A stretch of DNA of 14,868 nucleotides from Promethearchaeota archaeon (GTDB taxonomy: Archaea > Asgardarchaeota > Lokiarchaeia > Sigyniarchaeales > SOKP01): contig JAHLWP010000063.1 in assembly GCA_019057865.1 (NCBI GenBank), forward strand, positions 1 to 14,868, in the 5' to 3' direction. The translations under genes and the position numbers were made by a program. The notes below the pieces were generated by a model. That model made no database searches and was not told the origin of the DNA. It was given only the letters and a program-made list of their open reading frames with translations. Below are positions 3 to 14,451 of this stretch, one piece after another. The number at the start of each line of letters is the position of its first letter. The stretch's first letter is position 1.

Positions 3-236
3 AGTATTATTAGAATAGGAGACATTAATTATAACTTTCTCTGCAATCAACTTTATGATATATACTTTGTATTAAAATCCGCTAATAGAGATAAAGAAAA
101 AGATATTAATGGTTATCTTAAAAAATTAGAAGAATTATTCATAGAAGAATTTAGAATGGATTTAATAGCTTTTGATGGTGATACTTCAATATTTAAAAGA
201 TTCAAAAAAACCTTAACAAAGTTTCTTGAAAAATAA
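3..236 (+). CDS. Partial CDS (3' end), longin-like/roadblock-type small domain protein
   Basis: Not in the ORF track. Frame 3 is open from the window edge to TAA at 234-236: SIIRIGDINYNFLCNQLYDIYFVLKSANRDKEKDINGYLKKLEELFIEEFRMDLIAFDGDTSIFKRFKKTLTKFLEK. Beta-strands followed by L..L...F...F and F.GD.S.F..F helices resemble the C-terminal half of longin domains. Confidence 0.65.
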   Translation, partial: SIIRIGDINYNFLCNQLYDIYFVLKSANRDKEKDINGYLKKLEELFIEEFRMDLIAFDGDTSIFKRFKKTLTKFLEK

Positions 237-253
237 AAGAAAAAGAAAATTGA

Positions 254-913
254 TTACACTAAACTGGTAAATATAGCACCTAAAGCGATGTAGAATTGAG
301 CTAGAAAATATGTTACCATATTAATTATTCTCTTTTGCTTGGCTGCTTCATCCCATTTATTTAAAGCGAGGAAAGTATCAGAAAAGATAAAAAATAGAGA
401 GCCAACGTAAATAAAAATAAATTCTAATCCTGCAAATTCAGCCAACCGTAAAACCGCGGCAATATGCATTATCAGTATAGCAGCCATGTAGACTAATACG
501 GGAATCTTTAAATCTCCAGTTTTATTGATAAATTTTGGAATTGTAAATAACATAATCAAAATTACAGGCCCAAGCAAGAATAACCCCCAAATATTAAAAT
601 CAGAGATATCACTTATGGATATGAAAAATGAAATTATAAAGAATATTTGGTTTAGTAAAAATGCCACCATGCCATATAAAAACCATTTTTCATTCTTTAG
701 CATCATGAAAAAATCCCCAGCCCATCCACATAGTAGAGCAACCAATATTAGCCAATCAATGTTAGGATGAGCTCCAAATATATAAAACAGAACAATAAAA
801 GGCAATACGAGCGGCTTAAAGCTTGTAATTAATGTATCATTATCTTTATACTCACCATAAATTTCTAAGGTTGCAAAAATGAAAACACAAACTATAAAGA
901 GGTATAGAATCAT
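254..913 (-). CDS. YhhN/TMEM86 family lysoplasmalogenase-like multi-pass membrane protein
   Basis: 219 aa, about 7-8 TM segments, with family motifs KPL, L..GWAGDFFM, F.YGMVAFLLNQ, PVLVYM, GSLFFIFSDTFLA and TYFLAQ. Confidence 0.88.
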   Translation of the reverse strand: MILYLFIVCVFIFATLEIYGEYKDNDTLITSFKPLVLPFIVLFYIFGAHPNIDWLILVALLCGWAGDFFMMLKNEKWFLYGMVAFLLNQIFFIISFFISISDISDFNIWGLFLLGPVILIMLFTIPKFINKTGDLKIPVLVYMAAILIMHIAAVLRLAEFAGLEFIFIYVGSLFFIFSDTFLALNKWDEAAKQKRIINMVTYFLAQFYIALGAIFTSLV

Positions 914-1240
914 ATTTTTTCCATCTAAAAAGTGTTTTTTAGTAATTATCCACTAGGAATTAAAGGTTTAAATAATTTTTTATTAAAAATTACATATTCT
1001 AATAGCTTCCTTTAGACCCATTCTTATTCTTTTAATCTTATTAAGAAAATTAATAAAAAATTATTGATTTTAAAACAATCCCTCCAATAAGCATAATAAC
1101 GATTATATATGCTAATTTTATCATTAATTTAAAATTCTAATTTATTAAAAATTTAAAAAAAAAAGATTTATTTTTATTTATTTACCCATAGACCACTGAA
1201 TTTCATTAAAAATCCTTATTTAGTTTTTGATTCACGTAAT

Positions 1241-2410
1241 TTATTTCTTAACTAAAATCTCTTTTAGTTTCTTTGCTCCTCCATTGTTGAAGAAATCCTT
1301 GATTTTATCAGAATATTCCGGTAAAAGTTGCAAAAATGGCATAATTGCTCTTGATAGTGATGTAAATGCCTCATTTCCATCCCCCATTATAAACATTTTA
1401 TCAGGACTTAAATTCTTGAAAATTTCTGGTAAAATGTTTGTTAATTGTACCGCTAAAAATCGCTCATCAGCACTACTCATCGCTTCTACTTGTTTTAGAA
1501 AACCTTCAGCTTGGGCAAGCATCTGTTGTCTTATGATTTCAGCTTCACCTTCAGCCTGAGCAATTAACTTTCTTTTTATTTGTTGTGCATCTGCATCAGC
1601 TTCAATAACTTTCTTCTGCCTTTCACCATCAGCTTCAATTTTTTTGCGTTCTCTTTCCTGCTCAGCAATAACAATTTCTTTTTCTTTTCTTCGCAACTCA
1701 ATTTCTCTTTCAACAAGTTGTTCTTGAATTCCAATTTCATTTTTTACTTCTAACTCTCTTATTTTTGATTCTCTTTCAGCTTCAGCTCTAGCAATACGAG
1801 CTTTTCTATATTCAACAGCTTGTTTAGTCGCTTCCATGTTTTTCTTTAATTCTGGCTCTTGAATAATAACTTCTAATATCTCAAAGGTTTCTATTATTAC
1901 ACCCCAATCAGCAGTTAATTCGTGTAGATCTTTTGAAACATGATCAATTATTTCTCTTCTTTCTCTAATAATTAGTTCAAGTGGCATATTCGCACAAGTA
2001 GTACGTATAATTGCCTCAGCAGCACCTTTTAATATTTTTTCTACATAGTTTTCATTTCTGGGAATCCATGAAACCGCACTAAACGCTTTCTCAGGATCAA
2101 TAACTTTCCAGATAGCCATCCCTACGATTTCTATGTTCTGGTATTCTTTTGAGACTACTTGGTCATGAGCTTCAAGAATAGTTTGGATACTTGTAGTTGG
2201 AATGACTACATACTCATCGATTAATGGCAATAATATTAAACTACCTCCTAAGCCAGCACTTTTAACTTTACCATTTCGTAAATGGATAACAAATTGATTC
2301 GTTTTGAACTTCCTGTATCTTGCGGCAAAGAATATTATAAACAAGAAGAGAATTATGGGAATTACAACACCTAAACCTACAAACCATGGATTTAATTCTA
2401 CAAATAACAC
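1241..2410 (-). CDS. SPFH/band-7 domain flotillin-like membrane scaffold protein
   Basis: N-terminal TM helix, SPFH core (WKVIDPEKAF...EAIIRTTCANMPLELIIRER...DWGVIIETFEILEV), then a long Ala/Glu-rich coiled coil with flotillin-type AEA/EAD/AEG repeats. GTG start, GGAGGT upstream at 2425-2430. Confidence 0.9.
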   Translation of the reverse strand: MLFVELNPWFVGLGVVIPIILFLFIIFFAARYRKFKTNQFVIHLRNGKVKSAGLGGSLILLPLIDEYVVIPTTSIQTILEAHDQVVSKEYQNIEIVGMAIWKVIDPEKAFSAVSWIPRNENYVEKILKGAAEAIIRTTCANMPLELIIRERREIIDHVSKDLHELTADWGVIIETFEILEVIIQEPELKKNMEATKQAVEYRKARIARAEAERESKIRELEVKNEIGIQEQLVEREIELRRKEKEIVIAEQERERKKIEADGERQKKVIEADADAQQIKRKLIAQAEGEAEIIRQQMLAQAEGFLKQVEAMSSADERFLAVQLTNILPEIFKNLSPDKMFIMGDGNEAFTSLSRAIMPFLQLLPEYSDKIKDFFNNGGAKKLKEILVKK

Positions 2411-2755: not shown

Positions 2756-3715
2756 TCATCTCCTTTTTTTAATTAATTTTTTAGTATAATCAACCAACAA
2801 ATAACCATTTTTTACATCACAAATATAAACTGTATCCCCTCTTTCAAATTCGGATCCCTCAATTAATGGTTTAACATGTAACCTTTCAAATTTCATAGGC
2901 GTATTGGAGGGAACTTTTATGATTCCTCCCCTCTTATCAACCGGTAAAATAATCTCTCCTTTTTTACCAATTAAGTTCAGGGTTGATGATATACTATAAT
3001 ATCTTGACTTTGCTAGCTTTTTCCACCCATAATTAATAAATTTTGTAATTATGTATGCCAAAAAGGGGGTTATAAAAAGAATGACAAATTTCAATGTTTC
3101 ATTAATTGAATAATATAATATTATACCAGAAATGCCAAATACTAAAAATGCTGTTGATAATAAGAGCATTATTGGTGCAGGAGTAATATCGGATAAACTA
3201 GTATCAATTTCACCCTCAGTTTCCATATCAACATCAATATCCGAATCTACTTCTACCCCCGCATCCACATCAACCTCAGCTTCAATTTCAACAGCATCTA
3301 CTTCAATTTCAACCCCCATATCATAATCTACATCAACATCTACCTCCGCATCTATATCTATATCGACATCTGAATCAATATCAATGTCAATATCAGTGTC
3401 AATATCCACGTCAATATCTGCATCAACATCTACATCTACATCAATATCAGCATCTACATCCATCTCAACATCCAATTCACCCTCTCCTGAAAGGCTAGAT
3501 TCCATTTGAGCTAAAAATGTTGATATAATAGACAATATAATTCCCCCGATAAATAAGCCTAAACAAATACTAAAAAATATATCATAAAGTTGGTTAAAAG
3601 AAAAACTCACTGAAGTCATGATCGTCCCAATAGAGAAAATTGAAACTATCGCAAAGGTATCTTTTTTCTTCCAACGTATATTCCTAAATCGATTTATCGT
3701 GGATTTTCTAATCAT
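2756..3715 (-). CDS. NfeD/YqiJ/YuaF-like membrane protein (TM helices, acidic low-complexity loop, C-terminal OB fold)
   Basis: Four hydrophobic segments, P(I/L)MLLLSTAFLVFGISG typical of YqiJ/YuaF, C-terminal NfeD OB motif (LIGKKGEIILPV...GGIIKV...FERGDTVYICDVKNGYLLV). Lies upstream of a flotillin, the established pairing. Confidence 0.85.
   Translation of the reverse strand: MIRKSTINRFRNIRWKKKDTFAIVSIFSIGTIMTSVSFSFNQLYDIFFSICLGLFIGGIILSIISTFLAQMESSLSGEGELDVEMDVDADIDVDVDVDADIDVDIDTDIDIDIDSDVDIDIDAEVDVDVDYDMGVEIEVDAVEIEAEVDVDAGVEVDSDIDVDMETEGEIDTSLSDITPAPIMLLLSTAFLVFGISGIILYYSINETLKFVILFITPFLAYIITKFINYGWKKLAKSRYYSISSTLNLIGKKGEIILPVDKRGGIIKVPSNTPMKFERLHVKPLIEGSEFERGDTVYICDVKNGYLLVDYTKKLIKKRR
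3203..3478 (-). repeat. Degenerate hexanucleotide coding repeat giving a (D/E)-(V/I/A) dipeptide tract
   Basis: Plus strand shows runs of acatca/atatca/acatct/atatct units, encoding aa ~80-171 ELDVEMDVDADIDVDVDVDADIDVDIDTDIDIDID... Confidence 0.9.
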
Positions 3716-6052: not shown

Positions 6053-7120
6053 ATGAATTATTATTCTAAAGAAGCTCTATTAGCTTCTATTGGGAATATT
6101 ACCAATCTTATTGAATTAAAACAAAAAAATGGAAATTCAATTATTATTTCCGAATATGGGGGGCGTCCTTTAGGATTATTTCCACGAGAAGATTGCTATA
6201 GTTTACTATGGATAAATTCTGAAATTAAAGAAGCCATCAAAACACGAGATAGAGTAATTGGAGGAGACAGGTATTGGATAAGCCCTGAACGTGACTTCTT
6301 TTATAAAGATCCTGAGAATTTTAGAGATTGGGAATGCCCATCTTCGTTAGATCCTGCATATTATGAGGTTTTAGCAAGTAATTCTAAGTCATGTACAGTT
6401 TCAAGTCCCATCTCAGTTTTGAATCAAAGAACTAAAGAATTGTATAGTGGGGAAATTACTCGCCAATTCAAACTTATAGAGGAACCTCTTAGAACTGGTG
6501 TTGAATATTGTGGTATAGAGTTTTTAGATGATTGTGTGCTTTATAGAGCAAATTTAAAAGTTAATGGGTGGTCTTTAGCTAATATAATAAGTGGTGGTCC
6601 TTCAAACCCAGGCACAGTTTTAGTACCAACTAAACCAGATCCAAAACCTCTTTCTTATTTTCGAAATATTCCCTCAAATCGTTTAAAAATTGGAGAAAAT
6701 TATTTAGCATATAAAATCGATGTGGATGATATCTACAAATTGGCAATTCGCCCCGAAGATATTAATTATGGAAGAAAAGCAAAGATTGGATATATACTAA
6801 AAATTCCAGATTCAGAGGATTATGGATTTTTAGTTAAATTATCTAACGATATTCCAAGAAGTCAAGATGAATGTTTTGACGTCGCGAGAGATCATCCCGA
6901 TTCTGAAATAGGAGTTATCCAATCATATAATTCTGAGTCTCCAGATAAGCCTTTATTAAATTATGGAGAAATTGAGCTTCAGTTGAGTCCATTTAAAACC
7001 ATTGATAATGCTTCCCATTGTAAAGCAACACATCAATTAATCGGTTATATTGGCAAAAAAGAAGAGATTCTAGACATTATAGAAAAATATCTGGGGATAG
7101 ATAATCCTTTCTTATTTTAA
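6053..7120 (+). CDS. Conserved hypothetical protein, DUF6786/DUF4380-like (probable galactose-mutarotase-like beta-sandwich)
   Basis: Motifs YGGRPLG, LLWIN, GGDRYWISPE, W..P..LDP, IQSYN and YGEIELQ resemble these families from memory. Clean 355-aa ORF with ATG start. Confidence 0.55.
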   Translation: MNYYSKEALLASIGNITNLIELKQKNGNSIIISEYGGRPLGLFPREDCYSLLWINSEIKEAIKTRDRVIGGDRYWISPERDFFYKDPENFRDWECPSSLDPAYYEVLASNSKSCTVSSPISVLNQRTKELYSGEITRQFKLIEEPLRTGVEYCGIEFLDDCVLYRANLKVNGWSLANIISGGPSNPGTVLVPTKPDPKPLSYFRNIPSNRLKIGENYLAYKIDVDDIYKLAIRPEDINYGRKAKIGYILKIPDSEDYGFLVKLSNDIPRSQDECFDVARDHPDSEIGVIQSYNSESPDKPLLNYGEIELQLSPFKTIDNASHCKATHQLIGYIGKKEEILDIIEKYLGIDNPFLF

Positions 7121-7159
7121 TTTTAAGTATTAAAGAAGAAAATAAGAGAAAATTAGCTT

Positions 7160-9079
7160 TTATATATTTAATTTACTTCTCCAAAAGTTAATTTTTTTTA
7201 ATAACATATCTTTCTCGGAAAGGTCTAATATCTTAGGTATAGATTTGAGAGCAGTGACCTCTATTCTGATTTGTCGTAGAATAGCACTAAAACCTTTTTT
7301 TTCGAGGATTTCGTCTTGTAGCTGTTGGAAACCTGCAGCTAACTCATATCCAGGCAGTGTTTCTAGGTTTTTTATTAAACTATCAAATTGATATGAAAGA
7401 GTAGCATCAGTTGGACTAATAGTACCGGTATAAGTCTCTGTTTGGGTCTCAACTTCTATTTTTTCTGATGGTATTTCGATAGGTTTAACGGGTTCTGGTT
7501 TAATAATCTCTTCTGCTTTAACTTCAGGTTCTTCTTTTGGTATTGAAACCCTTCGCGCGGGTTCTTTTGATATCTCTGGTTTTATAGGCTGTTGATATTG
7601 CTTAGGTATAAATCCAATTTGATCGATTTTTTTACTTTGCATCCATACATCTTCGAGTAAGCCAGCAAATAGTTTAATATGCTCATCAAGCACAGAGCCC
7701 ATACCTGCGACTTGCATAGTTCCGAGGTCTATATCTTTAGAAATTACACAAACTATTACTTCTTCAAAATCTCTATTTATTGACCATATATTTTCTCTTG
7801 GATAATGTCTTACATCGAAATTAGGAAATTGGCTGATTTGATTTAAGATTTTAACATCATCAGCATTACTTAAATCAAGATTAGTTGAAATCCTCACGTT
7901 TACATGTTTTTTTACCTTAGAAAGAGCGATGAAGTCAACATCTTCTAGTTTTGGAGCAATAATATAAATTCTCATTTTAATACGAGGGATTGATTCATTA
8001 ATTTGTGCTTTCATTCCCTCGATACTCCTTACAAACCATACATCTTTAAAACTTAACATTGAAGCTTCCTTAGAGCGATCCCAGAATTCTTGCATTGTTG
8101 CTTCAGCACTATCTAGTTGATTAATGATATTATTTATTATATCGGTTTGAAGAGTTTCAAAAATTTCTTTCTGGAATAAATTCTTTAATTCAGCAATACC
8201 CGCTATGATGTCATCATATACGCCAGTAACTCGGTTTTCTAGATCTTCTAAAGTACTTTTTAATCCAGATTCTATATCTGTAAATATAGTACCTAAATCT
8301 GTGGTTATTTCACCAGCAGTATCAGAAAGACTCCCCAATTGATTAATAACTTGATCAAGCATATTTTGTGTTGTTCCGACGAATTTGGTTTTAAAATAAT
8401 CTGTCATTTCATTAAATTGTTCAGAAACAACACGAGAAACGATTTTTTCAGCCATGGCTTTTAATGCTCCAATTCGAAATTGAGTTTCAAACTTATTCGA
8501 AATCTCGGATTTAATAGTTTCTAATTTGGTTTCCATAATATCAAATTCTTTCTCAATATCTGCTGGTACAATCTCTTTTAAGTTTAAAATAAATCTTTTA
8601 ACATCGTGGAATCTCTTTACTTGTTCAAGTTCACTCTCAAATCTATCAAACTGGGTTTTAATTTGAGCAGGAAGTTTAGTTTTCATAACCTGAATATATG
8701 TTTTATAGTCATCTAGTTTCTTTAATTTTGCTGAATGTTCTTCCATGGAATCGAATCGTTCTTGCAAATTTTTAGGAGAAACTTGCTGAAATGTTTTAAT
8801 TGTTTCTTTGAAATAGCGAATTTGATTTAAAAGCGCGGCATATGGAGGTAAAGCCATATAAAATGGCGTTTTTCCAGGAATTTCTCTGACTAAACCCTTT
8901 TCAAATAAATTATTTGCTATTTGTACTGCTCTTTCTTCATCAACATTAGCTATTAATGCAATTTCACCAGTCATTACGGGACCTCTTCCCGTTATTTTAA
9001 AATAAGTCTCAACTTCATCATGTGCTAATCCAATAAGTTCTAAAACATGCTTTGTTGCTGATACTTCTTCATGCGACAC
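7160..9079 (-). CDS. TrmB-type wHTH + long amphipathic helical repeats/coiled coil + inactive PLD-like (TrmB effector) domain + Pro/Glu linker + small helical C-terminal domain
   Basis: N-terminus LELIGLAHDEVETYFKITGRGPVMTGEIA...LFEKGLVREIPGKTPFYMALPP is a TrmB HTH. VWFVRSIEGMKAQINESIPRIKMRIYIIAP...VNVRI...INRDFEEVIV...LFAGLLEDVW matches the TrmB PLD-like domain without HKD. GTG start, AGGTG RBS, 18 nt after the upstream stop. Confidence 0.75.
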   Translation of the reverse strand: MSHEEVSATKHVLELIGLAHDEVETYFKITGRGPVMTGEIALIANVDEERAVQIANNLFEKGLVREIPGKTPFYMALPPYAALLNQIRYFKETIKTFQQVSPKNLQERFDSMEEHSAKLKKLDDYKTYIQVMKTKLPAQIKTQFDRFESELEQVKRFHDVKRFILNLKEIVPADIEKEFDIMETKLETIKSEISNKFETQFRIGALKAMAEKIVSRVVSEQFNEMTDYFKTKFVGTTQNMLDQVINQLGSLSDTAGEITTDLGTIFTDIESGLKSTLEDLENRVTGVYDDIIAGIAELKNLFQKEIFETLQTDIINNIINQLDSAEATMQEFWDRSKEASMLSFKDVWFVRSIEGMKAQINESIPRIKMRIYIIAPKLEDVDFIALSKVKKHVNVRISTNLDLSNADDVKILNQISQFPNFDVRHYPRENIWSINRDFEEVIVCVISKDIDLGTMQVAGMGSVLDEHIKLFAGLLEDVWMQSKKIDQIGFIPKQYQQPIKPEISKEPARRVSIPKEEPEVKAEEIIKPEPVKPIEIPSEKIEVETQTETYTGTISPTDATLSYQFDSLIKNLETLPGYELAAGFQQLQDEILEKKGFSAILRQIRIEVTALKSIPKILDLSEKDMLLKKINFWRSKLNI

Positions 9080-9097
9080 GTTTAATGCAACACCTAA

Positions 9098-10225
9098 TTA
9101 TTTTTTATATGCTTCTTCGAGTAATTCTAAATGTTTAATTGCCAATTCTTTTTTAAGTTTCCCATCAACACGATGTTGCCGAATTTTCTCAATTATATAT
9201 TCTGGATAAAATGTGTGAGTTACAATATCCGTAAATAAAAATACCCATAGACTACCCTTGCTATCCCTTATAAGTTTAATAATTTGATCTTGCTCCATAC
9301 TTTTTAAAAATTCACCAATTTGCTCAACGCTTTCCCCGGGACCTTTAGGAATTTTATTTAGGGGATATGCTCGTTCTCTAAAAAGCGTGATAAAATCATA
9401 TTTATCAGGATTTACCATATTTTTAGCTATCTTTAGATTATCCTCTAAGCTGGGTTTATAGGTTTTAAAGAAATTATTCACCTCTTCGAGATATATTGTA
9501 GCTAATTCGGGAGTAGGAAGCTTTTTTCTTGCTTCCTCTACTAGTTTAGCTACAGGTGTTCTCAAAATAGTAAAATCAGAAAGTAGAAATAATGAAATAT
9601 CTGAATCACCCTCAATCCAATCTTGTTTGACAATTCCTGTTTTTACGAAAGGATCTAATGTAACTTCAATATTTGATATTATTTTACTTAACCTTTCTTC
9701 GAGAATTGCTTGTAAATCTTTCCTAGATAATGGTTTATCTTGTAAAACCTCTAAAATTGTTCTTCCCTTTTCACTAGTATAAATTTGTGCTAATCTTTGT
9801 TCCTTTGTTAAATTTTTCAACCTCTCTAAAAGAAATAATGCGTTTTTTAGATAGTTTTTTAATTCGTTTACAACGTCATAAGTTTGGGAAATACCTGTTC
9901 CCATTTGTCGAAGATAATTTAAGGTTGTTTCATTAATTTCTTGAATCACTGCTTCACCAAACATGTCAGGGTCTTCCCCTAACTCTAACATTAGATTTAC
10001 CATTATGGGTCTTTCAGATTCCATTCCAGTAAAAAAACTCGCCACATTGGAACGTGCTTTTTCCAGTCTTACTAAAACATTTCCAGCTTCTCCTGCTCCT
10101 GTTATATGGGCATAGAAGATGCGCATCATATCATCCAAATCAATATCTAGGCTTTCAGGATAATTAAGCGTAACAGCTAAACCTCGATCTTCAGTCCATT
10201 CAGTAATTATAAATCCTCTTGGCAT
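9098..10225 (-). CDS. Longin/uDENN-like N-terminal domain + two tandem winged-helix modules (NPRL2/NPRL3-like architecture)
   Basis: MPRGFIITEWTEDRGLAVTLNYPE matches the start of uDENN/NPRL2-type longins (hydrophobic strand, F/W-xx-x-x-G, strand, YP). wHTH1 is GRTILEVLQDKPLSRKDL...TLDPFVKTGIVKQDW and wHTH2 is KYDFITLFRERAYPLNKI...FLKSMEQDQIIKLI. Confidence 0.6.
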   Translation of the reverse strand: MPRGFIITEWTEDRGLAVTLNYPESLDIDLDDMMRIFYAHITGAGEAGNVLVRLEKARSNVASFFTGMESERPIMVNLMLELGEDPDMFGEAVIQEINETTLNYLRQMGTGISQTYDVVNELKNYLKNALFLLERLKNLTKEQRLAQIYTSEKGRTILEVLQDKPLSRKDLQAILEERLSKIISNIEVTLDPFVKTGIVKQDWIEGDSDISLFLLSDFTILRTPVAKLVEEARKKLPTPELATIYLEEVNNFFKTYKPSLEDNLKIAKNMVNPDKYDFITLFRERAYPLNKIPKGPGESVEQIGEFLKSMEQDQIIKLIRDSKGSLWVFLFTDIVTHTFYPEYIIEKIRQHRVDGKLKKELAIKHLELLEEAYKK

Positions 10226-13200
10226 TTAATTCACTTCCTCTTTTTTAAGATTAATTTTTTCAATTTTATTAATTTTCTCAGGTTGTATTAATTCTAAACT
10301 TAAAATTTTCACACTATCTTGCAGATTATTTTTTATAATCTCTTCTCGTTTATTTACTATAACTGGTTTTGTCTTTTTTGCTTTACTAACCTTTTTCCTT
10401 AAAGCTCTTATCTTCCTAACTAAAGGTGGGAATCGCCAACGTTTAATATATAAGGTAAAAATTGTACCAACAACCAATATTACACCAATAAATCCATATA
10501 CTAATAAAGAAATAAGCCAGCTTAAATTAGGTCCAGGAGATACTGATGGTCTACTTACTATCAATGTTATTTTATATTCTTGAAAAATATAATCATCCCC
10601 GTAAACAGCATATATTTTTATTTCATGAACTCCTTCTCGAACGTTAAACAAAGTTACATTGTATATCCCATCATTATCTAGATCTTCAAGTTCTCCCTGT
10701 CCATAGGCCCATGTGAATGTCACATTAGCATTTTTAATCGTGTTATTTAAAGGATCTTTTAAAATAATTTTTAATAATACATCTTCTCCGACATCAACTT
10801 CTATTTGGTCACCTCCATCTGCTCGGCTAATAATTCCAACTATTTTATTTATAGTAATTCTTATCCCTCCTATAGTTTTAATTATATAATTGGGTGCATA
10901 AGCGATAATTGTAAATAATTTAGTTCCAATACCTAAAATGGTTGTATCAAGACCACCTGGGATATAATATTGCCCTAAGCCAGCATCTTCTGTTAAATTG
11001 AAGGTTAAACTCTCTCCTTCCAATTGTATTGTCGCATTACTAATGTGTTGTGATTCATTATCCATGAATTTCACAGTTATATTTAAGAATTCTTTTATTG
11101 GAAGTTCATAGACGGGATCACTTGTTTTATCTATACCATCTAAAAATAATTGTAATTGCGAAGACTTTTTAGTTACTTCAATAAAAAAGTTAATGGTTTG
11201 AGGCTGATAATTAACGACTTCTGCAAATACAGTTAATAAAGTAACTTCTTGGGCAAGAGTATTAGCTTTTAGACTATAATTGTAATACTCATTTGTTTCA
11301 TCAAAATATCTATCTGGCAGTAAACTAACTGTTGCATTTGGTAAATGTTTACCTGTTAACTGATCACTGAAAGTTATAGTCACATTTATGACTGCATCAA
11401 GTTCAACTGTAATTTTACCATTATTAGATGTTTCATTACCATTTAATAATAATTTTAAAGAAGACGCTAATTCAGTAATTTGGACTCTAATTAGAACAGA
11501 TTGGGGTTCATATTTATACGGATCTATTGAAATAATGAAGGATTGAAGTGTGAGTGATGCATAAGCAGATGTATTACATTCTAATTCATAATGCCCAACG
11601 CTAGGTTGTGTTAAATGATAATCACCAAGCCATTCATCAATAGTAATGTCTGTTGTATCAATCCAATTTAGAGGATTATTTTTTTCTGTATAATTAAATC
11701 GCACAGTAAAATTTTGTTTCCAAGGAGTAGTGAAAAAATCAGTTTCAACCGTCAAAATTGTCTCTTTAATTACATCAACTGTAATATTTATGGTTTTATT
11801 CAAATAATAGCTTGAATTAGCATAAATCGTTACAGTATTGTTTCCTGCCTCAGCTTTAGAAGCATTAAATTCATATAAATAAAATCCTGGACTAGTTTGG
11901 ATTAATGATTCATCGACTCCTGTAAAATCTGTATATACATATGCATTTTCAATAGCTGTACCATCTATTAAATCTCTAAATGATACTTTAATATTAATTA
12001 TTCTATCGTCAATTACATTTTCAATGAAATATACACCTTCATCAGGATAAAGAAGAGAATCATGGATTACTATAAACTTTTTATAAATAATCCCTGTTTC
12101 ATTTGAACCAAAGGATGAATATGAATTATTCCAAGTGATAACCGCTTCATATTCTCCTGCTTTATAATTTGGAATGTTATCAGGTATCATAATAGGATCA
12201 AAATAGACCGTTCCAGTACTATCAACTAGTTTTATTTGAGTTTTTGAGGTCCATATAGAACTATCTGGAAATCTTATTTGAAGCTGGGCTTTGGTTTGTT
12301 GGATATATCCAGAAACCAATGCGGAATTATAAATTTTTCCTGTAATGTTAATATATTCTCCACTTAGGAATTCATTATTAAGCTCCCAATCACCTGTAAC
12401 ATTATTATATATTTCCATTTCTTTACAGTAATTAGGTGATACTGCTGTTAGCCTCCAAAATCCATTTGTATTACTTGTTATGGAACTTACTGGAATATTT
12501 ACAATTTTTTTGTTTCCATGTTCTTTTATCGAAGTTTGAGAAAGAGAATCAGGATTTAGAGAGAAAAATACTCCTGTTAAATTAAAATCTGAAGGATATT
12601 CAACAGTCATATTCGTTTCTTCATATCCAGTTGGAATCTCCATATGCGCATACGTTGTCCAATTCACATTGCTATTATTAGATACAATAAAAGATGACCC
12701 TTGATAATTTAGATTTGGATCAGCAGTATAATAGGTTTCAGGACTAAATTTATTTGTAAACAAATTCAAATTTGTCTCAAGTTCTATTTTATAACTTATC
12801 CAACTCCCGTCTTCTTCAAAAGTTAAAGGCCAATTAAGATTACTACTAAAATTAGCAATTACTGATGATTGGATACTTCCATTCCAATTACCTAAAATTC
12901 CAACATAACCTTTACCATAATTACCATTATCAATAACATCCTCATTGTTTAATTGCAAATCAAGTTGAGATGGTTTTGCTTTAGCTTTAACGATTAGCGA
13001 TACGTTATCAATGAGAACAGAATAATCCTCTGCATAACCAGAATATGGATTTCCACTAACTCTTTTAAATTCTAAAGTAACATTCATATCTTTAACTCCA
13101 ACAGGAAATAATTGTCCATCATTAACATCTAAGTATATAGTTGGTGGATTATACCATTGCCCAGTAGAAGGGTTACCACATGCTTCTAGCATTGATGCAA

Positions 13201-13945
13201 GACCATTACCCCATAAAATCTTATTATTTACTATAACTTGTAATACAAAATGATTATTATATATATCACTATATTTCGGAAAGACCGCAAAGCTTAACCA
13301 AGCTTCATCTACATCCCCTCTATCAATTTCAAAAATAGTTTCCCACCAACATTTATCACCAACATCATAATAATTATTACTATAATCTCCAATCAATAAC
13401 TGCAAGCAATCAGCTCCATCAGATCCAGAATAACCATCGTCAAAATAATTACCACTCATGTAATTAGTATCTAATGTATCCATCGTTTTAAATGTCCAAT
13501 TGGCAACATAATTACTATCATTATCATCTCTAGAATAATCATTATCATCAGGACCACAATGAAAAGTTCCATTAATCCAATTTCTTGTATCATATAAATT
13601 TGTTATTGTAGAATTTAATTGATATCCCATCCATCCATCTAATTCTACATATTGAGAATTATCATAAGAATTATTATTAAAACTTATTTCCAAATTAGTT
13701 TTTGTTCGATTAGCATAGTGAGTTACATTCCAAGGAGAGCCTATACCGGTGAAAGTATTATCAGTAGCTAAAGTATCAGATGCTAAATTGGGTATTTCTT
13801 CAGAAGGGGGAATCTCTTCAATGTTATTCGAGTCATTCGAATCATTCGAAGTATTTATTGGAAACAAATAAGAAATTGGAAACGAAAATAAAACAATGAC
13901 AAGTAATATTACCAAGCCTTTAATCCTAATATTTTTCTCCTTCAT
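10226..13945 (-). CDS. Large single-pass cell-surface (glyco)protein with Ig-like beta-sandwich repeats, C-terminal TM and basic cytoplasmic tail
   Basis: N-terminal basic + hydrophobic signal/anchor, Asn/Asp/Tyr/Trp-rich beta ectodomain with many N-x-S/T sequons, about five ~100-aa repeats (aa ~628-1131; I.V.F.D...G..I.NA.V...G.Y...T..A), a DLDNDG Ca-binding-like motif, TM WLISLLVYGFIGVILVVGTIFTLYI, then FPPLVRKIRALRKKVSKAKKTK. Confidence 0.85.
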   Translation of the reverse strand: MKEKNIRIKGLVILLVIVLFSFPISYLFPINTSNDSNDSNNIEEIPPSEEIPNLASDTLATDNTFTGIGSPWNVTHYANRTKTNLEISFNNNSYDNSQYVELDGWMGYQLNSTITNLYDTRNWINGTFHCGPDDNDYSRDDNDSNYVANWTFKTMDTLDTNYMSGNYFDDGYSGSDGADCLQLLIGDYSNNYYDVGDKCWWETIFEIDRGDVDEAWLSFAVFPKYSDIYNNHFVLQVIVNNKILWGNGLASMLEACGNPSTGQWYNPPTIYLDVNDGQLFPVGVKDMNVTLEFKRVSGNPYSGYAEDYSVLIDNVSLIVKAKAKPSQLDLQLNNEDVIDNGNYGKGYVGILGNWNGSIQSSVIANFSSNLNWPLTFEEDGSWISYKIELETNLNLFTNKFSPETYYTADPNLNYQGSSFIVSNNSNVNWTTYAHMEIPTGYEETNMTVEYPSDFNLTGVFFSLNPDSLSQTSIKEHGNKKIVNIPVSSITSNTNGFWRLTAVSPNYCKEMEIYNNVTGDWELNNEFLSGEYINITGKIYNSALVSGYIQQTKAQLQIRFPDSSIWTSKTQIKLVDSTGTVYFDPIMIPDNIPNYKAGEYEAVITWNNSYSSFGSNETGIIYKKFIVIHDSLLYPDEGVYFIENVIDDRIINIKVSFRDLIDGTAIENAYVYTDFTGVDESLIQTSPGFYLYEFNASKAEAGNNTVTIYANSSYYLNKTINITVDVIKETILTVETDFFTTPWKQNFTVRFNYTEKNNPLNWIDTTDITIDEWLGDYHLTQPSVGHYELECNTSAYASLTLQSFIISIDPYKYEPQSVLIRVQITELASSLKLLLNGNETSNNGKITVELDAVINVTITFSDQLTGKHLPNATVSLLPDRYFDETNEYYNYSLKANTLAQEVTLLTVFAEVVNYQPQTINFFIEVTKKSSQLQLFLDGIDKTSDPVYELPIKEFLNITVKFMDNESQHISNATIQLEGESLTFNLTEDAGLGQYYIPGGLDTTILGIGTKLFTIIAYAPNYIIKTIGGIRITINKIVGIISRADGGDQIEVDVGEDVLLKIILKDPLNNTIKNANVTFTWAYGQGELEDLDNDGIYNVTLFNVREGVHEIKIYAVYGDDYIFQEYKITLIVSRPSVSPGPNLSWLISLLVYGFIGVILVVGTIFTLYIKRWRFPPLVRKIRALRKKVSKAKKTKPVIVNKREEIIKNNLQDSVKILSLELIQPEKINKIEKINLKKEEVN

Positions 13946-14196
13946 TTACATCCCTCAAGAAATATAAAATATTAACATTTTTTATTATTGATTTTTTAAA
14001 AATTGATATATTGATTTTTATTTTATATAAAACTTTTAAATAACAAATAAAAAATAAATTATGGTATATAAAAATCTTTTTGTATGTAATTAACCAAAAA
14101 ATAATGTTCAAATAAATCTCACTGATTTGATATGTTAAATCTTTAGATAAAATAATTTAAATCCAATTTTCTTAATAAAAGTTAATTCTTTTAGCT

Positions 14197-14451
14197 CTAT
14201 GATCTTTTAATCTTTTTTTTTTTTAGTTCAGTTAATTCTATATGTAAAAATTTAATTTGACTTTGAAAATTACTTCTAATAATATCATTACGATTGCTAG
14301 CTATAATTTGTTTTGTCTTTTTTACCTTTCTAACCTTTTTCCTCAATTTTTTTATTTTTCTTATCAATGGTGGATATTTAAAATGAGTTTGATATAAACT
14401 AAAACCAGTAATCAGACCGATAATTCCAATCCCTAATGTATAAATGAGCCA
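14197..14451 (-). pseudogene. Orphan 3' fragment (TM + basic tail) of a paralog of the large surface protein
   Basis: Manual translation WLIYTLGIGIIGLITGFSLYQTHFKYPPLIRKIKKLRKKVRKVKKTKQIIASNRNDIIRSNFQSQIKFLHIELTELKKKKIKRS*. 26 of 48 residues are identical, ungapped, to the tail of 10226..13945. No ATG/GTG/TTG before the TM, and an in-frame TAA at 14473-14475. Confidence 0.85.

Follow-up and report, generated by a model that had tools for sequence, protein, structure and literature searches.

The window analysed here is the entire 14,868-bp contig C84 (JAHLWP010000063.1) of a Promethearchaeota archaeon, part of a 4.26-Mb Asgard genome assembly in 87 contigs. We studied three of its minus-strand genes, termed A, B and C, which form a putative surface-protein operon. 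Gene A (10226-13945 (-)) is an open reading frame (ORF) for a surface protein of 1239 residues, gene B (9098-10225 (-)) encodes, according to its ORF and a structural model, a soluble protein of 375 residues with a longin domain and two winged helices, and gene C (7160-9079 (-)), which starts with GTG, encodes a TrmB-type protein of 639 residues as judged by ORF, Pfam and model. An earlier note on this DNA had described three co-oriented genes, the first two abutting and the third 18 nucleotides (nt) further on; the ORFs were confirmed and both junctions are exact in the sequence. The TAA of A (10228-10226) abuts the ATG of B (10225-10223) with 0 nt between them, and 18 nt (9097-9080) separate the TAA of B from the GTG of C, with Shine-Dalgarno-like GAGG / AGGTG elements located 10-13 nt ahead of the starts of B and C. 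The 250 nt upstream of A (13946-14196 (-), GC content ~0.24) are an AT-rich spacer with several TATA-like boxes, which probably serves as promoter region of A, and a T-rich tract past the stop of C (7121-7159 (-)), facing the end of a convergent gene, is a probable archaeal terminator. Given the tight packing, the upstream TATA-like spacer and the downstream T-rich tract, A, B and C look like a single transcription unit, co-transcription being read from the spacing.

Protein A begins with a hydrophobic signal or anchor (residues ~8-30), continues with an acidic ectodomain (isoelectric point (pI) 4.3) carrying 42 NxS/T sequons, ~19 being expected from composition, and ends with a transmembrane (TM) helix (residues 1141-1167, 10445-10525 (-), hydropathy maximum 2.42 at residues 1144-1145) and a cytoplasmic tail of 72 residues (1168-1239, 10229-10444 (-)). 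Judged by its sequence, A is a glycoprotein-like single-pass surface protein. Residues ~640-1135 (10541-12028 (-)) form beta-rich repeats of ~100 residues that are probably immunoglobulin (Ig)-like, as suggested by sub-threshold matches to Big_1, Invasin_D3 and MG2 and by a periodic motif at residues 650, 853, 954 and 1056 (period ~100 residues). The Big_1 profile of Pfam reached 20.9 bits over residues 1056-1111, below its curated cut-off of 34.9 bits. As only the sub-threshold Ig-like matches and the periodicity speak for it, the Ig-repeat label originally given to A is plausible, albeit unproven.

The tail of A is strongly basic, residues 1173-1200 (28 residues) having a pI of 12, and its core, RFPPLVRKIRALRKKVSKAKKTKPVIVNKREEII, contains a motif that is kept in 41 A-like proteins adjoining B genes. 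The motif follows the pattern F-K-Y-P-P-[LM]-V-R-K-I-R-K-L-[KR]-K-K ... K-P ... N-x-R-E-E-I. A-like genes encode 285 to 1536 residues and are often alignable to A in the last ~110 residues alone, that is, in the TM helix and the motif; thus the conserved basic tail postulated earlier is borne out, the motif being kept while the ectodomains vary. Elsewhere in the same genome an A-like protein of 1185 residues (C14, 74491-78048 (+)) contains the TM-plus-tail motif twice, at residues 511-574 and 1054-1112, as if two A-like genes had fused or the gene had undergone internal duplication.

Protein B has no match to any Pfam or NCBIfam family. Its 411 homologues are all hypothetical proteins, none of them named; many are 70-98% identical and exactly 375 residues long, and the close ones are labelled Promethearchaeota or Lokiarchaeota by their sources. 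An AlphaFold2 (AF2) model, based on an alignment of 30 rows spanning the family, had a predicted local distance difference test score (pLDDT) of 90.6 and a predicted template modelling score of 0.84, and this high-confidence model and its fold matches substantiate the longin plus tandem winged helix-turn-helix (wHTH) architecture that had been read from the letters. Residues 1-138 (9812-10225 (-)) form a longin domain with the order beta-beta-alpha-beta-beta-beta-alpha (in the model, strands 4-11, 15-22, 48-54, 59-65 and 74-81, helices 30-41 and 86-108). Structural alignment with VIA-align matched it to over 30 longin domains of known structure (Z 9-12.3, 110-134 aligned residues), placing it in the longin superfamily by fold; the best match was Lst4 (4zy8_A, Z 12.3, root-mean-square deviation (rmsd) 3.2, 128 aligned), and others were a Loki longin (8yqg_B, Z 12.0), FLCN (6nzd_H, Z 11.9), FNIP2 (Z 11.7), the NPRL2-size GATOR1 chain 9o5d_D (Z 11.3) and C9orf72 (Z 10.6). 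Winged helix 1 (residues 139-223, 9557-9811 (-)) is ArsR/SmtB-like (7p6f, Z 8.5, rmsd 2.1, 74 aligned; 6ez1, Z 8.4), with HTH_5 and HTH_20 matches in family members, and winged helix 2 (residues 256-341, 9203-9460 (-)) aligns with 5znx (Z 8.5) and 4k2e (Z 8.4) and matches the PH1932 profile with E 9e-4, so that by VIA-align both resemble ArsR/HlyU-type domains (Z 8.4-8.5). The model also shows a long helix, then a helical spacer between the winged helices. Two C-terminal helices (residues 342-375, 9101-9202 (-)), directly preceded by an invariant P341-E342-Y343 motif, form the core of a predicted tail-binding groove, as suggested by family conservation and the complex model described below.

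This architecture (longin 1-138, wHTH 139-223, wHTH 256-341) is the same as that of NPRL2 and NPRL3 (Npr2/Npr3 of GATOR1/SEACIT; 375 versus ~380 residues), which consist of an N-terminal longin domain and two or more winged helices (Levine et al., PMC3747258). Foldseek found B to be co-linear with GATOR1 chain 9o5d_D over 371 columns (E 1e-3), and in a shape search of the ESM Atlas eukaryotic NPR2 clusters matched residues 1-371 of the 375 with template modelling scores of 0.35-0.43. B was rejected as an NPR2 family member by sequence, PF06218 giving no hit at E<=1 in B or in 30 family members and none genome-wide. The only invariant positions of the longin domain are G15, P23, H40 and S63. 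An aromatic-x(3-4)-G-P motif in the beta1-beta2 loop is typical of the GTPase-activating protein (GAP) longins of NPRL2, FLCN and SMCR8 (PMC12290439); in B this loop reads W10-x4-G15, G15 being invariant and W10 kept in at least 90% of sequences, with the following Pro found only in one paralogue, on contig C87. The catalytic arginine finger (NPRL2 R78, FLCN R164) is not conserved, R72 of B being missing from most orthologues. NPRL2 and NPRL3 work with DEPDC5 and Rag, whereas this operon provides no DEPDC5 or Rag context, and neither docking to the tail of a surface protein nor pairing with a TrmB-like protein is known for GATOR1.

FLCN-FNIP (Lst7-Lst4) and C9orf72-SMCR8 possess the longin fold closest to that of B and are likewise recruited to a membrane protein, as in the recruitment of C9orf72-SMCR8 by WDR41-PQLC2 (PMC12290439). 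Unlike B, however, they have DENN domains instead of winged helices past the longin domain, and they are recruited through other proteins rather than by a receptor tail. Asgard longin families, 'NPRL2-like longin' groups among them, have been reported before (Liu et al., bioRxiv 10.1101/2020.10.19.343400; PMC12290439; PMC9834061), and some of those in the preprint are linked to small GTPases; they share NPRL2/FLCN-like longin domains with B. Tail-bearing surface proteins, a tail-adaptor pairing or a TrmB-like partner are not described in the portions available of these Asgard longin reports (bioRxiv 10.1101/2020.10.19.343400; 8yqg).

Protein C was modelled with a pLDDT of 68.5. Its N-terminal winged helix (residues 1-79, 8843-9079 (-)) belongs to the TrmB family, with PF01978 scoring above the Pfam cut-off (residues 14-79, E 1.8e-8, 34.5 bits versus 25.6), and matches PDB entry 3qph (E 3.9e-5) and TrmBL2 (5bpi_D, Z 10.4, rmsd 2.8, 113 aligned). 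Three very long helices follow in the model as a coiled-coil hairpin (residues 80-340, ~260 residues, 8060-8842 (-)); both the TrmB wHTH and the long helical region had been foreseen in the earlier reading. Kinship of the coiled coil with the chemoreceptor 2ch7_A (Z 11.4), the SMC protein 5nnv_D (Z 11.3) or Tc toxins (Z 10-11) was rejected, as long helices commonly give such Z values. The next domain, a conserved alpha/beta domain (residues 346-488, 7616-8044 (-)), is probably the phospholipase D (PLD)-like domain of TrmBL2/TrmB. TrmBL2 chains 5bpd_B and 5box_A align not only with the winged helix but also with the alpha/beta domain, at Z 10.7-10.8 and with 17-18% identity over 217-227 residues (residues 5 to 470/477 of the C model with residues 2 to 249/256 of the chain), and the first 58 columns of the alpha/beta profile align, weakly, with the start of Regulator_TrmB in a bona fide TrmB-family protein of another Asgard genome (hhalign E 0.0025, probability 12%). 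The domain has no Pfam match, including Regulator_TrmB (PF11495), no PDB match by single sequence or 21-row profile, and Atlas feature scores of only 0.75-0.76. The catalytic HxK(x)4D (HKD) motif of phospholipase D was not found in residues 346-488; to our knowledge, TrmB-type PLD-like domains are not expected to carry it. The PLD label given earlier to C is thus supported by structural alignment to TrmBL2 and lacks a sequence match, making it probable, albeit not secure.

C ends with a Pro/Glu/Lys-rich disordered linker (residues 489-555, 7415-7615 (-), pLDDT <50), which is variable in the alignment and absent from short variants, and a conserved four-helix domain (residues 556-639, 7163-7414 (-), KGFSxVLxQI ... 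FWxxKL) recognized from alignment and model, the latter showing the bundle at residues 556-636. Because of the TrmB wHTH and the TrmBL2 alignment over both domains, C reads, in its predicted structure, as a TrmBL2 with a coiled-coil insertion of ~240 residues and an added tail domain. TrmBL2 and TrmB of Thermococcales have the TrmB wHTH and dimerisation helix in common with C (22-23% identity, rmsd 2.6-2.8), and probably the PLD-like domain too, but they are devoid of the insertion, the Pro-rich linker and the extra C-terminal helical bundle. The sugar-binding subdomain of TrmB was not detected in C, where Regulator_TrmB gave no sequence match. Short C variants of 487-514 residues (L042 9093-10637, L051 6485-7948 and L055 924-2426) end directly past the alpha/beta domain, without linker and C-terminal bundle.

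The neighbourhood of B was compared across Asgard genomes using an orthologous set of 18 loci, found in 17 further genomes that belong to the same family or a sister family, in which the B orthologues are 55-94% identical to B and 374-387 residues long throughout. The order A-like, B, C is kept in 16 of the 18 loci, with one to three A-like genes preceding B; this arrangement is far beyond chance, confirming the triplet as a conserved unit. At one of the two exceptions (L046) the contig ends, and at the other (L050) a 228-residue ORF without C match lies between B and the contig end, the genome having another B copy (L056) with C. The stop of A and the start of B abut or overlap in ~20 of 42 A-B pairs. 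Within the genome studied here all four proteins with the tail motif adjoin B paralogues, arranged as A-B-C on C84, as an overlapping A'-B' pair on C23 and as two A-like genes divergent from B'-C' on C14.

The B family was detected in 141 of 201 sampled Asgard genomes. For a wider survey 55 loci were picked by B match alone, holding 60 B genes; as the relatives are not independent samples, the following counts are descriptive. A tail-bearing single-pass protein lies within 1.3 kb of 42 of the 60 B genes (families f1, f2, f3, f13, f15 and f21), a GTPase with an N-terminal extension of ~125 residues within 1.4 kb of 20 (f7, f8, f12, f13, f15, f19, f26 and f1), and C within 40 nt of 19 (f1 and f2 only). 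Three of the extended GTPases were scanned and matched Arf, Roc and Ras of Pfam, two of them also Gtr1_RagA. One locus (G048:C18, 2-8028 (-)), the sole one surveyed with all of GTPase, B and A, encodes an Arf/Rag-like GTPase of 288 residues with N-terminal extension, a B homologue of 398 residues and a tail-bearing surface protein of 2003 residues in genes that overlap or abut. In five genomes where B does not adjoin A, a tail-like motif is still present in 3-5 open frames each, mostly very large ones (15 of 19 with 1174-5022 residues; the others with 279, 338, 815 and 2116). From these neighbour counts the stable core appears to be a tail-bearing surface protein plus B, with the GTPase and C as alternative third partners. 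The notion of a linked module across Asgard archaea thus stands for the tail-bearing genes and the longin-wHTH gene, which occur together in distant families, but not for the third partner, which elsewhere is a small GTPase instead of a TrmB-like protein.

Several variants of these neighbourhoods were seen. In f8, f19 and f26 (L067 9161-10009, L063 7163-8011, L073 9188-10132 and L077-L079) a protein of ~280-314 residues, in which an N-terminal domain of ~125 residues precedes and is fused with a G domain of the Arf/Roc/Gtr1-like kind, is encoded 13-124 nt past the B homologue. B homologues with C-terminal extensions have 525-580 residues in f12 and 692 residues in one genome, G180 (L064 7543-9285, L085 6019-7596, L086 6047-7645 and L068 8023-10101), and in f12 a protein matching the coiled coil and alpha/beta domain of C is encoded ~4 kb away from the B homologue. 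Locus L095 (G023, 209-985 (-)), from a lineage without the long C form, has a canonical short TrmBL2-like protein of 258 residues with TrmB and Regulator_TrmB domains; its gene lies 2.3 kb away from that of a tail-bearing protein, and the distance to a B homologue is 5 kb. Finally, the genome studied here encodes five receptor-like proteins of ~760 residues (C71 7978-10269 and 25938-33071, C23 73901-76201) with signal, ectodomain, one TM helix and a ~200-residue cytoplasmic alpha/beta domain in cis; these were rejected as Rosetta-stone fusions of the B longin domain, hhalign giving a probability of 0.25% and indicating a different family.

We then turn to the predicted complex of B and the tail of A. 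The input comprised B, accompanied by its alignment of 30 rows, and the C-terminal 73 residues of A, accompanied by one of 35 rows. Three runs gave interaction scores from aligned errors (ipSAE) of 0.81, 0.80 and 0.80, versus 0.21 for the best control, a mark that 58 of 80 solved complexes attain, as do 2 of 110 mismatched pairs, these counts being rough with user-supplied alignments. The partner pLDDT was 68-70, and at least 90% of the contacts were common to the runs. In the model, tail residues P1173 to about I1215 (10301-10429 (-); chain 2 residues 7-49) contact B residues 162, 217-230, 249-258 and 335-373, so that the predicted site is the winged-helix and C-terminal half of B and not its longin domain. 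Among the 34 interface residues are 7 of the 27 invariant or near-invariant B positions (D217, P224, P341, E342, Y343, L366 and L369), 2.4 being expected (p 0.006). The model thus supports binding of the tail of A to B. The earlier idea that the tail recruits the longin-wHTH protein is upheld insofar as a controlled prediction places the tail on B; the contact maps to wHTH2 and the helical half, not to the longin domain.

Our preferred explanation, which we regard as about evenly poised between right and wrong, is that the genes represent a conserved Asgard operon coupling cell-surface proteins to the cytoplasmic adaptor B. The ectodomain of A would be free to vary, and its juxtamembrane cytoplasmic tail would be a conserved basic 'tag' on which B docks via the wing of wHTH1, the last strand of wHTH2 and the C-terminal helices, leaving the longin domain free as a partner platform. 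In other Asgard lineages the longin partner would probably be the Arf/Rag-like small GTPase encoded nearby, and here probably C, which is co-expressed with B in this Lokiarchaeial clade on the proposed scheme and would most likely be an output or scaffold at the membrane, either DNA-binding or a filament-like tether. The cellular role may lie in organising or anchoring surface proteins or in relaying their state. We infer the B-C contact from gene order alone, and the GTPase partnership and the cellular role are offered as suggestions. The kinase-free signalling or membrane/DNA tethering put forward in the earlier note is likewise a conjecture.

Several observations weigh against this explanation. 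The wHTH region of C has a pI of 5.6 and is not basic, which makes DNA binding by C uncertain. The best orthologue of the fused GTPase in this genome (C24 9460-10359) is unlinked to any B gene, and a search among longer proteins (658-2000 residues), a weak one, found no fused A-B protein. As for the complex, its score is the model's own confidence and all evidence is computational; the enrichment of conserved positions in the interface is not independent of the alignments fed to the model, and the entropy contrast is weak (1.75 versus 2.11, p 0.07). Moreover, the P-E-Y motif of B may be structural, because it persists in lineages that lack an adjoining A gene.

The predicted tail-B complex would also fit outside-in signalling, the stronger form of the earlier reading, in which ligand binding or clustering of A alters the hold of the tail on B and thereby releases or sequesters a DNA-binding C, changing transcription without a kinase. 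Sequestration of a regulator at a membrane protein is established for Mlc and PtsG, the presence of several differing receptors with one adaptor per locus recalls chemoreceptors with CheW, and C combines a true TrmB wHTH with a second domain that resembles the one in TrmBL2. TrmBL2, however, is a chromatin protein and not a specific regulator, the wHTH of C is acidic to neutral, and C is confined to one clade whereas the A-B pairing is phylum-wide. As there is also no hint that the single-pass, glycoprotein-like ectodomain senses ligands, we consider this mechanism unlikely.

Alternatively, B might chiefly be a GTPase regulator, an NPRL2/FLCN-like GAP or guanine nucleotide exchange factor that the tail of A recruits to switch an Arf/Rag-like GTPase, with C as accessory. 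The resemblance of its longin domain to Lst4, FLCN and NPRL2, the NPR2 clusters as best full-length eukaryotic shape matches, the GTPase genes adjoining 20 of 60 B genes and the description of GAP-type longins in Asgard archaea (PMC12290439) all point in this direction. Set against them, the beta4-beta5 loop has no conserved arginine, R72 not being kept even among orthologues, no Pfam NPR2 match exists, and a fused-GTPase profile finds no GTPase gene in the operon or beside the B paralogues of this genome, so that we view a primarily GTPase-regulating B as improbable here. Likewise improbable is that B and C are ordinary local winged-helix transcription factors of the surface-protein genes without physical link to A, since the two ArsR-like wHTH domains of B, the TrmB wHTH of C and the frequent location of regulators beside their targets would fit, but one cytoplasmic tail kept under unrelated ectodomains, abutting stop and start codons, the longin domain of B, its linkage to small GTPases elsewhere and the controlled tail-B prediction would all be left unexplained.

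If the operon does couple surface proteins to B, the nearest functional analogy is with eukaryotic cargo-tail adaptor complexes and with the signal recognition particle receptor (SR), in which SR-alpha (SRX longin) pairs with SR-beta: here, too, a soluble longin-domain protein would be linked either to an Arf-like GTPase or to a membrane protein, through a short signal on the cytoplasmic side of the latter. Structures matched by the longin domain of B include two SR chains (7obq_y, Z 9.8; 7nfx_y, Z 9.7) and an adaptor protein (AP) sigma subunit. The likeness is one of analogy only; the contact predicted here uses the winged-helix half and not the longin domain, and we know of no vesicle coat in these archaea. 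A wider generalization, tentative and in our view on the unlikely side, would be a general Asgard tail-tag system in which many unrelated giant surface proteins share one cytoplasmic signal and an NPRL2-like longin/winged-helix adaptor that reads it recruits to the membrane small GTPases or, in the case of Lokiarchaeia, a coiled-coil protein resembling TrmBL2. Such a system would be a prokaryotic forerunner of cargo-tail recognition and of GATOR1/folliculin-type longin recruitment.

The remainder of the window contains neighbours of the operon. Upstream of A, a 56-codon ORF (14197-14367 (-)) retains just the TM end and basic tail of another A-like gene; the 81% nucleotide similarity to the middle A-like gene of the closest relative ends near 14428. 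The ectodomain part is therefore missing or replaced, unless the end of the contig reflects a break in the assembly. A DUF6786 protein of 355 residues (6053-7120 (+)) is encoded convergently with C, at a position kept in most orthologous loci, and is probably a synteny anchor unrelated to the module. An upstream gene for 267 residues that is kept in related loci was likewise rejected as part of the module, being an ordinary short-chain dehydrogenase (SDR) and a synteny anchor instead. Further away, the gene at 2756-3715 (-) encodes a membrane protein that has a long, acidic (Asp/Glu-Val/Ile)n repeat and matches no Pfam family. Two genes downstream of it, on that strand as well, an SPFH/Band 7 protein is encoded (1241-2410 (-)), with a small 77-residue ORF between the two.

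We found no paper on this tail-adaptor-TrmB module, including within the accessible literature on Asgard archaea, longins and the term 'cytoplasmic tail', and the available portions of publications on NPRL2-like Asgard proteins do not describe such an operon (bioRxiv 10.1101/2020.10.19.343400, PMC9834061). Lokiarchaeal cells are devoid of a surface layer (S-layer) and expose a large number of complex proteins on their surface (PMC9834061). Such proteins are believed to establish cell-cell contacts of relevance to eukaryogenesis, and the operon would provide a conserved, testable physical link from them to a eukaryote-like longin protein, the pair of tail peptide and B being small enough for direct biochemical and structural tests. 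As sister lineages show a linkage of the B family with Arf/Rag-like GTPases, the family may offer a handle on the roles of Asgard longins and GTPases at the membrane and, if the proposal is true, the operon would give the first example from prokaryotes of a longin-family adaptor reading a shared signal in cytoplasmic tails.

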